From: Synechococcales cyanobacterium VAR_4_metabat_354
GTDB taxonomy: Bacteria; Cyanobacteriota; Cyanobacteriia; Cyanobacteriales; Chamaesiphonaceae
DNA: 64,000 nt
Reading direction: 5' to 3'
Assembly (NCBI GenBank): GCA_031414775.1
Contig: JANOQI010000041.1
Location: forward strand, 138,727-202,726
Shown piece by piece: positions 44,913 to 47,400 of this stretch; the first letter of the stretch is position 1; each line of letters opens with the position of its first letter. Position numbers and translations under genes: made by a program. The notes under the pieces were generated by a model, which saw nothing but the letters and a program-made list of their open reading frames with translations, searched no databases and had not been told where the DNA came from.

Positions 44913-45136
44913 GATTAGTATTGATTTACGAGTGGCTGGATTTATTTGTGCTGTTTTATGATTATTTTTCTTTATTTAATTATATGGTCGAATAGCTATA
45001 TGTGCGAATGAGGTGATTGACGATTTGGACTTGTTAAAACTATTAGAGCTTTGCTTCAGTGAGGGAGCTGAAGTTTGATTGTTAATGGCAATCTGTCTAA
45101 GACTAGCTATGTAGTGATCGATCCGAAGACCGATCG

Positions 45137-45235
45137 CTATTTGGCAACATCAGTTAAGTGCTCTTTTAAATCATGCCACCGCTCAGGATTATTCGGTGGT
45201 GGGGTATGTGCTACAAAACTTGATTGTAATGACAT
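45137..45235 (-). pseudogene. Probable 5' remnant of a cas3 gene (HD-nuclease N-terminus)
   Basis: Manual translation MSLQSSFVAHTPPPNNPERWHDLKEHLTDVAK*, matching the AH...W..L.EHL..VA start of Cas3 HD domains. Confidence 0.55.
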
Positions 45236-45451
45236 TGAAAACCATACTGAGGACAAAATTTGGCACAACGACAATAGCAATTACCACGCTTGTGAGAAAT
45301 TCCCTTTGATTCTTGCTGTCTCATGATGATGGTGGTATTGAATTGGCAAGCTGCGGATTCATGGTTGGATGAGTTGCCCTATTTAGCTTTCACCAAAGCT
45401 GCACCGCTAGAAGTATTGAAACATTGTCATGAGATTCTGCATGATGGGGTT

Positions 45452-45809
45452 TAACATTCTACGCGCGTGCGAAGTCCGCGATTTTAGTCGTAGGTAAGCA
45501 ATGGGTAGCTGCTTATGACAAGAGTTTGTAGCGGTTCTGGCGACGGATGTTTGAGTGGCGTGTTGCACCACAATGGTACGCGATCGCTTACCTTCCCTTT
45601 TTGTTTTTTTTGCAGCTGTTTTATTCACTGGATGGAATAGTTGGGAACCCCAAAGTTTTGAATGTAGTGCTGAATACTCGGAACTGTCTGCTCTATGGGA
45701 TTGCTGGTATCCTTGTAATAATGAATCCTCAGTCTTGATTATAGCAATGGCGAGCACTGCTTTTGCTTTTGGATCTTGATGATTATTCACTATTAACTGT
45801 AGAATGTTA
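45452..45809. repeat. Perfect 11-bp inverted repeat TAACATTCTAC (45452-45462) / GTAGAATGTTA (45799-45809); the left arm runs into the palindrome ACGCGCGT (45461-45468)
   Basis: Read directly from the sequence. Confidence 0.75.
45532..45610 (+). pseudogene. Possible fragment of a CPBP/Abi intramembrane protease gene
   Basis: RFWRRMFEWRVAPQWYAIAYLP resembles the WRV..RWY motif; in-frame TAG at 45529-45531 immediately upstream. Confidence 0.4.
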
Positions 45810-45834
45810 TTTTTATACACTTAAATGCCAGCTC

Positions 45835-47400
45835 ATGGAATTGTCTCGCGAAACTGTTATCGATCGATACCGTCAGCGAATTGCCCAAGGCGATCGATCT
45901 AAACTCTCTAAATCCGAGCTGACCGAATTTATCGCAGATTTTATCGGGCAGTTGGCTATCCTCAAATCCAAGTCACGGATCGAGTCTCTTTGTTTGAGTG
46001 AAATTGCTCTGCTGGAAGAGGGCTACCCTCAGCCTACGGTGGGTAAGGTTTATTTACCGATGTACCGCAAGGCGATTAAGAGTGCGATCGACAATGGTGA
46101 GTTGTCTTTGACCAAAGGCACTAGTCACGAATACTCTTACTCCAAGAGAAATGGTGATTCTGGCTCGACGATCGAACACTTTGCTCTCACTTTTTTGAAG
46201 TATGATACTGCCACCTATGGCCAGTTTGCTGCTGCTGCTGCCGATCGCAACAATACCAAGCAAGATAATCTTCAGGCTGTGGAGTTGGAGGCTTTTTTGG
46301 CGGTGGCTGCTGATTTGTTGCAGTCCGATAATCCTTTCGATTTGGCGGCTGGTATCGCTGCTACTACCGGTCGGCGCTTTTCGGAGGTGGTGGCTAAGGG
46401 GGCGTTTACTCCATCTGATGATCCTTATTGGCTCTCGTTTGAAGGTCAGTTGAAGAAACGGACTAAGGCTGATCGCTTTCTCACACCTTGTCTACTACCG
46501 GCTGTTACTGTTCTGGCTGCTTTAGAAAGTTTTCGTGGACATTCACGCATTGTCCAGCTCTCTCAGGGTACGCCAGATGAACTAAATCGCAGTTTGGCTG
46601 ATTCGGTGAAGCGTTCGGTTAAGTCTCACTTTAGTGGGATTGTACCGATGCTGCCAGGGGAGAGGGCGGTTTCTGTTCATAATTTGCGCGGTGTCTATGC
46701 TCAGGTTTGTACTTACTATTTTTGTCCACCCGATCGCACTACTGCCCGCTTTTTACAGGAATGTCTGGGTCATGTTATTTCGGCGGAGGAGTTGAAACGA
46801 TCAAATTCGGCGGCTACTCAGTACTATTTTCACTATTATTTGGTGGATAGTCTTGGTAATCACCTTTCGGCGAAGGGCACCTTGTTGGGAATTGACGCTC
46901 CTGTCGAACCTCTATCTACTCCCTCGGATGATTCGATTTCTGCCCTCCAGGAAGAAGTTAGTCGTCTGTGGGCGCAGGTGCACCGGACTACTGTTCCGGC
47001 GGTAGATTTGTCTGGCGATCTTGCTACTGCGATCGATCGCATTTCTTCTCTTGAATCGGCTCTGAAAGATGCCCATCGCCGTATTGACCAGCTGCTAACT
47101 ATTGTTCAGCCTAATATTCCACGCAATTCTAAGCGTCGCACTCCTGCTGCCGTGAAGATTTTGATGGCGATTGATGCCATCTTTTTGTGGAATTCCCAGC
47201 ATCCCCAAAAGTTTGCTGTCTCTCAGACCTTGTTGCTGAAGGCTACTGGTTGCAATCGTCCGGCTATTCAAAGGGTTTTAGCCGATCTGGCTGAGGAGAT
47301 CGATCGCCATCATGCTCAGTTTTCGATCAGCTCTCGCAGCCAATCCCGCCATCTTGATGCAATCCTTCAATTTCTGAAAGAGAGTGTCAACGATATTTAA
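45835..47400 (+). CDS. Protelomerase / telomere resolvase family protein (TelN/TelK/ResT-like) with C-terminal coiled coil and helical domain
   Basis: AATTGRRFSEV (R), FEGQLKKR (K), HNLRGVYA (R), LGH (H), then TQYYFHY (Y); start at ATG 45835, TAGAAT -10 at 45800-45805. Confidence 0.87.
   Translation: MELSRETVIDRYRQRIAQGDRSKLSKSELTEFIADFIGQLAILKSKSRIESLCLSEIALLEEGYPQPTVGKVYLPMYRKAIKSAIDNGELSLTKGTSHEYSYSKRNGDSGSTIEHFALTFLKYDTATYGQFAAAAADRNNTKQDNLQAVELEAFLAVAADLLQSDNPFDLAAGIAATTGRRFSEVVAKGAFTPSDDPYWLSFEGQLKKRTKADRFLTPCLLPAVTVLAALESFRGHSRIVQLSQGTPDELNRSLADSVKRSVKSHFSGIVPMLPGERAVSVHNLRGVYAQVCTYYFCPPDRTTARFLQECLGHVISAEELKRSNSAATQYYFHYYLVDSLGNHLSAKGTLLGIDAPVEPLSTPSDDSISALQEEVSRLWAQVHRTTVPAVDLSGDLATAIDRISSLESALKDAHRRIDQLLTIVQPNIPRNSKRRTPAAVKILMAIDAIFLWNSQHPQKFAVSQTLLLKATGCNRPAIQRVLADLAEEIDRHHAQFSISSRSQSRHLDAILQFLKESVNDI

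Follow-up and report, generated by a model that had tools for sequence, protein, structure and literature searches.

The present study analyzes an open reading frame in a 64,000-nucleotide stretch of a cyanobacterial genome (the window) and confirms that it encodes an intact protelomerase. Both the family to which the protein belongs and its way of working are known ones, and we infer its catalysis from TelA and TelT. Patterns detected across the genus make it quite probable that this is an active resolvase whose gene was captured from a telomere-side position early in the genus, has since persisted on the chromosome in single copy and works in trans. The gene (P0001, 521 amino acids) occupies positions 45835..47400 of the plus strand in a stop-free frame, and GRRFSEV, FEGQLKKR, HNLRGVYA, LGH and TQYYFHY follow one another in the order that the first-pass annotation had read. 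An upstream TTG start at 45763, offered by the ORF finder, has no support from homologues, whose starts lie at or near the ATG.

The assignment to the protelomerases, made at first from motifs, is borne out by both profile and structure. PF16684 matches residues 145-334 over its full length (positions 1-181 of 181) with 165.7 bits against a cut-off of 27, TelA and TelK are the closest sequence relatives with solved structures, and no match to PF00589, the family of tyrosine recombinases and integrases, was present among the Pfam hits at E 0.1. An AlphaFold2 model built from a 30-sequence alignment (mean pLDDT 81.2) matches TelA with Z 22.8 (rmsd 3.9, 279 aligned residues), TelK with Z 19.4 and ResT with Z 14.9, as opposed to 9.1 for the best tyrosine recombinase (XerA) and 5.5 for topoisomerase IB, so the better match to either of those families that would speak against the assignment is absent; Foldseek agrees with the protelomerase fold. 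The protein is not TelA itself, scoring 38.9 against the cut-off of 800 of the NCBIfam TelA equivalog NF052462. R181, K207, H282, R285 and H313 align with TelA R255, K286, Y363, R366 and H394, in a register counted on the profile alignment against the TelA residues listed in the available text of PMC3558466. Four members of the proposed R-K-R-H-Y catalytic set (R181, K207, R285 and H313) thus stand in TelA register, and they are invariant in the 30-row and 62-row alignments; the tyrosine is assigned from invariance, the sequence alignment to TelA stopping at LGH, short of TelA Y405. Y331 (46825..46827, plus strand), invariant in 62 of 62 rows, is likely the nucleophile, an assignment made uncertain by the equal invariance of Y334 in the 30-row alignment and by a His-Tyr spacing of 18 residues as compared with 11 in TelA, in a loop with pLDDT 61.

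Four regions may be distinguished along the protein, all encoded on the plus strand. The N-terminal helical DNA-binding region (residues 1-140, 45835..46254) is homologous to TelA chain residues ~154-242 and is retained in paralogues that have lost the catalytic domain, which itself covers residues 145-334 (46267..46836). The coiled coil and small helical C-terminal domain described in the first-pass annotation correspond in the model to two long, coiled-coil-like helices at residues 366-384 and 392-424 (46930..47106) and to a conserved domain at residues 438-517 (47146..47385). The latter belongs to no named family, gave no match at >=0.9 in the ESM Atlas, and is also kept in the catalytic-less paralogues.

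The gene is the only protelomerase copy in the 64-contig assembly of the window's genome, which was probably binned from sediment metagenomes, and lies inside a 202-kb contig, surrounded by metabolic and other chromosomal genes. Of the neighbours named earlier, xfp (with acetate kinase) and dsbA (DSBA match, E 1.8e-8) were recovered, and the mltA-like label is weakly backed by a 3D domain at E 0.032. The scan covered 40 of the 51 window ORFs (those of at least 130 amino acids; cut-offs 0.1 and 1e-12) and detected no rep, par or phage family, consistent with the isolated position first described. The ~0.9 kb between dsbA and the protelomerase gene (45075-45820) contain short ORFs without a Pfam family, one of which (45547-45738) may by eye resemble a membrane-protease fragment. 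Elsewhere in the window, positions 1000-22100 hold an ordinary cluster of glycosyltransferase, ABC-transporter and asparagine-synthase genes, probably for surface polysaccharide, and the first 16 kb are low in GC (33-45%). Beyond the window, an integron integrase (G000:C35:92343-93320, TIGR02249 above cut-off) sits at a contig end, and many of the genus's genomes have similar matches close to a contig end.

Every one of the 12 genomes of the genus has one PF16684 match, as opposed to none of 25 in the sister genus and 102 of 401 class-wide. Weak matches of 31-33 bits were seen mid-chromosome in two small genomes (G089:C1:1196145 and G065:C1:2077179), and the Synechococcus elongatus control also matched. 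In all 11 relatives of the window's genome the gene lies amid ordinary chromosomal genes. Its neighbours are common within subclades and different between them, as is true of other genes, so that the synteny comparison proposed in the first-pass annotation upheld the chromosomal context (11/11), with conserved flanks within subclades only. In a quick tree, all but one of the 12 enzymes fall into a single clade (SH-aLRT 100), nested in a 33-row clade (SH-aLRT 99) together with the telomere-side enzymes of two loci outside the genus, L058 and L108. The main splits agree with those of an rpoB tree, from which G006 and G010 are absent. The twelfth genome, G009, is a separate lineage with an unrelated protelomerase that groups with those of G082 and G083 and yet is found among chromosomal genes; the locus (L022, G009:C66:109478-112990) has a housekeeping context, and G082 and G083 are single-contig genomes. 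No telomere was found in G009, and the axis of the G082/G083 type was absent from G009, G008 and the window's genome.

The reading frame is intact in 11 of 11 orthologues. Values of dN/dS were 0.03-0.22 in nine pairs by three regions (two values saturated), well below 1 in all three domains, and 0.06-0.22 between the window's genome and its closest relative. The eleven enzymes are orthologues, vertically inherited under purifying selection, and because of this inheritance and these dN/dS values the gene is best regarded as a domesticated, selected gene rather than a relic. No relative of P0001 was found in 50,697 phage records; viral contigs had no relative of P0001 or of the truncated protein described below, and no axis match. 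A metagenome scan gave 48 loci, all at 55% identity or less, and hence added no contexts for the genus clade.

Outside the genus, protelomerase genes are often ~0.5-4 kb from a fold-back axis and oriented away from it. Eight of 40 distinct metagenome contigs with protelomerase genes were assembled through the axis, a count based on 42 of the 48 loci, with six partial matches left out. The axis GTTTATGTTAA/TTAACATAAAC is common to L058 and L108, which have the nearest enzymes to the genus clade with a visible axis. Several assemblies end in or read through hairpin telomeres (the end of G082:C1, L068; G083:C1:2113190, L061; G206:C2:916522, L059; and G189:C54, L058), with mid-contig mirror arms of 3-4 kb or more, which suggests that such finished genomes are really linear.

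The 12 genomes of the genus were scanned with a degenerate 18-mer derived from these outside axes. Matches with one mismatch were at background (23, as compared with 38 in the control); matches with no mismatch fell in three places, each a perfect palindrome, and gave telomere-type ends in two of the 12 assemblies, G011 and G006. The first (L173, G011:C322) is a contig of 15,798 nt that is one perfect mirror, and encodes ParA, a relaxase and a NikA-like protein, from which it is taken to be a plasmid end. The others (L174, G011:C793, and L175, G006:C546) are contigs ending 12 and 10 nt beyond the axis, 80% alike over their last 143 nt, and repeats of the AACTAYRA type occur on all three. On L174 there are a SNF2 fragment and a DDE transposase of IS type, the IS being ~590 nt away from the axis. 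L175 has TnsB, TnsC, TniQ and a small ORF, which are closest to the hairpin-proximal PAST of G206 (44-58%, against 24-37% for three other Tn7-like loci compared, one of them near cas12k); on these matches it is a PAST-type telomeric transposon without its own protelomerase. None of the three carries a catalytic protelomerase, and G006 and G011 each have one, on the chromosome. The two telomere-positive bins (84% and 93% complete) belong to the other subclade, at 52% identity to P0001, and are the most fragmented of the set (580 and 850 contigs, 5% contamination), for which reason mis-binning is possible.

By 18-mer, half-site and repeat searches no telomere was seen in the other 10 of the 12 genomes, the window's included. 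Seventeen half-site matches fetched from other genomes of the genus were all internal and without repeats, and the tandem-repeat pattern, searched in 10 genomes, was matched at L174 and L175 only. Beside the gene itself, the longest perfect arm within 1.5 kb upstream was <=9 nt in 11 of 11 orthologues (273 nt being available in G007). One further contig, L293 (G010:C19:1-6401), may hint at an end of a linear main chromosome: argH (89% to the copy in the window's genome) and nagA are directly followed by a TGT end and PAST-type TnsB and TnsC cut at the contig end, the TnsB being 59% to PAST and 35-38% to other loci, and Cas12k was not found in G010. As a one-ended PAST it would mark an end of the main chromosome; it may instead be a two-ended TnsBC element, a type described in the available text of bioRxiv 10.1101/2024.11.13.623437.

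In the window's own assembly the contig-end graph had no fold-back end, palindromes searched genome-wide had no arm above 21 nt, and half-site matrices, fused-site matrices and TATACA density were nowhere above background, with no telomere half-site at contig ends and no internal fused site. Sub-telomere searches by blastn and nhmmer and a search for repeat clusters yielded no sub-telomeric repeat cluster, and there was no PAST or L173-type plasmid gene set and no TnsB, TnsC or TniQ match. The readable dead ends, judged by eye from their ORFs, are located within IS, integron cassettes, rRNA flanks, hsdS or duplicated genes. A contig of the window's genome has high depth in runs X2 and X3 (285 in the latter), where relatives of the truncated L173 gene (at least 80% alike) have a depth of <=3, run depth being a rough guide only. 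Contigs aligned to L173 stopped short of the axis; X4 is near-identical to L173 and may be its source. Telomeres could nevertheless have escaped assembly, because terminal pieces are easily lost from bins, given the low count of contigs assembled through the axis outside the genus and the IS so near the axis of L174.

A further link between gene and ends may be identified in the 12-mer ATTTTTATACAC (45809..45820, plus strand). It occurs once in the window's genome, 26 nt before the ATG of P0001 and just past a sigma-70-like promoter match (TTGATG-N18-TAGAAT, 45776..45805, plus strand; a consensus match only, near chance level), and it is shared with the sub-telomeres of L174 and L175, where it lies ~225 nt from the axis and is oriented as it would be if the gene had formerly been telomere-side. 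Fifteen 12-mers are common to L174 and L175, and any of them is near an ORF start in only 6 of 2,681 ORFs. This 12-mer is well kept only in the window's genome (no mismatch) and G003 (one), with 3-5 mismatches in the other nine. Spotted post hoc, it is a lead, as a candidate operator or a relic of telomere-side origin.

The plasmid end L173 also contains a derivative of the enzyme. A 337-residue gene at L173:6497-7507 (minus strand) lies ~390 nt from the axis, in the ancestral position and orientation, and its product lacks the catalytic domain while keeping the N-terminal DNA-binding region (58% to P0001 over the first 140 residues), the coiled coil and the C-terminal part (45%). A protein search found, among 56 hits, 27 full-length catalytic-less clusters (P0117-P0143) of 321-342 amino acids and 55-100% identity, plus P0149; many clusters have multiple members (10 were looked up). 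Seventeen of these 28 catalytic-less proteins were placed in a tree built on the N- and C-terminal columns: 16 form one clade (94.9/96) joined to the full-length enzymes of the genus (98/97), and P0149 pairs with the full-length P0059 (99.9/100). Across the 190 catalytic columns, the identities of these proteins with P0001 number 0-3. Judged from these sequences, the catalytic domain was deleted independently in P0149, which gives the form at least two origins. Among 39 genomes of the family the catalytic-less form occurs in G011 only, so that its genomic context is known from one member, L173. Two other proteins may be mentioned here. L203 (G011:C202:3856-4215), a 306-residue ORF adjoining a RadC-like ORF by eye, distantly resembles the N-terminal region of protelomerases (30%) and is devoid of catalytic motifs. 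A protein of 323 residues in the window's genome (G000:C33:30629-31600), with a Lys/Ala-rich N-terminus and a coiled coil, lies among housekeeping genes; its C-terminal domain bears a weak likeness to the one in P0001 (E 3.4e-5 and 9.4e-7 by profiles made for this study), and it is possibly a third protelomerase derivative.

By analogy, the catalytic-less protein could plausibly be an end-cap, a recruiter, or an autorepressor or other regulator, since TelN of phage N15 protects hairpins from Mre11-Rad50 (SbcCD) independently of catalysis (PMC12624138, available text) and extra resolvase copies may, according to the available text of a review (PMC13685816), bind degenerate flanking sites. TelN is a precedent for a non-catalytic role. 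However, protection was demonstrated there with a point mutant keeping the whole catalytic domain, and the TelN C-terminal domains were dispensable, whereas the paralogues lose the catalytic domain entirely and keep the C-terminal one, and for this reason the TelN mechanism is not assured for them; the function of resolvase C-terminal domains is called unknown in the same text. A larger scheme, which we put forward tentatively and think rather unlikely as a whole, is a two-gene split in which the host resolvase would serve all ends in trans, a linear main chromosome included, and the plasmid derivative would be a dedicated cap, shielding ends from SbcCD for instance, or would recruit or regulate the host enzyme; bacteria would thus have derived an end-binding protein from a resolvase at least twice.

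The reading we prefer is service in trans by the chromosomal enzyme. After the early capture of the telomere-side gene, replication would round each hairpin end, a dimer of the enzyme would bind the fused inverted repeat, and staggered cuts of both strands through 3'-phosphotyrosine would leave two resealed hairpins, a chemistry taken over from TelA and TelT. The sites would be the GTTTATGTTAA/TTAACATAAAC ends of linear plasmids and telomeric transposons without a catalytic enzyme. Trans action is most likely because the axis of the sister clade was found on contigs of the genus that lack a catalytic enzyme, and in the absence of one of their own these ends would need that of the host. Of the three roles that the first-pass annotation had offered, this is the one favoured by the matching ends in two of the 12 assemblies. 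We infer that enzymes of the P0001 type resolve ends of the L173, L174 and L175 type; the window's species would presumably have such ends, and the chances of a linear main chromosome seem about equal either way. A different origin for the same gene, as the decaying remnant of an integrated linear plasmid or phage, could account for flanking genes that differ between subclades and for the sub-telomeric 12-mer just upstream. We hold it to be the least probable explanation by the intact frames and low dN/dS in all three domains, the agreement of the enzyme tree with rpoB, the lack of element genes around the locus and the empty searches of phage records and viral contigs, and this second of the three offered roles is accordingly set aside.

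The third, co-option as a recombinase, integrase or defence factor, would mean a circular chromosome and another job for the enzyme, such as resolution of dimers or inverted repeats or the cutting of incoming linear elements, with the telomeres belonging to passing elements. This is consistent with a gene in every genome of the genus and telomeres in two of 12, with an Xer-like recombinase that is present in 27 of 27 sister-genus genomes (for example L264, G018:C151:1306-2328) and absent from 12 of 12 here, and with reports, in the available texts of PMC12270096 and PMC13221069, that mutation can turn TelA into a Cre-like recombinase. The Xer-like absence means little, however, because that family occurs in only 6 of 401 genomes class-wide and scores below the XerC and XerD cut-offs; prediction of dif sites in cyanobacteria was also unsuccessful according to the available text of PMC3025954. 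With no internal fused site in the window's assembly, ends that keep the sister-clade axis without a catalytic enzyme of their own, and no evidence found for an integrase or defence role, we consider co-option improbable. It is also conceivable that the hairpin contigs are mis-binned or confined to the other subclade, and that the window's species has no current substrate. The two bins that yielded telomeres are the most contaminated, none was recovered from the deep 64-contig assembly, and depth in X2 and X3 does not track. Mis-binning would not account for the nesting of the L173 protein with the enzymes of the genus, or for the axis and repeats that L174 and L175 share with L173 and the 12-mer that they share with the promoter region of P0001. 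Lack of a substrate is hard to reconcile with selection that is strong even when the window's genome is compared with its nearest relative, and terminal pieces are readily lost in assembly; we therefore regard this account as very unlikely, if slightly less so than the remnant of an integrated element.

Service in trans from a chromosome has a parallel in TelA of Agrobacterium biovar 1 (PDB 4e0z, 4dwp), which is encoded by the circular chromosome and acts for a linear chromid separate from it (PMC13293297, available text). TelA is like P0001 in fold and active site, with ~26% identity in structural alignment. P0001 aligns only from TelA residue ~120-126 on and differs in its longer His-Tyr loop and in having a coiled coil and a C-terminal domain in addition; the literature searched yielded no plasmid-borne TelA paralogue without the catalytic domain. 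ResT of Borrelia, an essential resolvase encoded on the circular replicon cp26 (PMC2229028, available text), resembles P0001 in its catalytic domain but is plasmid-borne, has 18% identity and has different flanking domains. The first-pass annotation knew of no established function for cyanobacterial members, a statement overtaken by TelT of Leptolyngbya ohadii, which resolves its telomere to hairpin ends in vitro (Hsieh et al., bioRxiv 10.1101/2024.11.13.623437, available text). In the same source, 15 of 27 PASTs carry a telT gene and the rest do not, and L175 is like the latter. Compared by description, P0001 is unlike the TelT of PASTs in being a vertically inherited chromosomal gene, neither transposon-borne nor telomere-side. 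It does not follow a TnsBCQ operon at the end of a replicon, as PAST-borne telT does, nor does it have the site directly upstream and the phage or rep genes nearby that mark telN and telK of linear phage-plasmids.

The protelomerase family, its mode of working and its activity in cyanobacteria (TelT) were already known. What is new is domestication across a genus with a named candidate site, together with a catalytic-less paralogue that evolved twice and is seen at a plasmid telomere; we found no paper on naturally catalytic-domain-less protelomerases or on this genus in a search that covered few subscription journals. The candidate substrate axis GTTTATGTTAA/TTAACATAAAC allows a direct test in vitro, and an orthogonal pair of enzyme and site could serve for making closed linear DNA. 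The catalytic-less family is a natural test of whether end protection is separable from resolution and of what the C-terminal domains of resolvases do. For the organisms, the draft assemblies suggest that a domesticated hairpin-telomere system is present throughout a cyanobacterial genus, which would show a way for telomeric transposons and linear plasmids without an enzyme of their own to persist.
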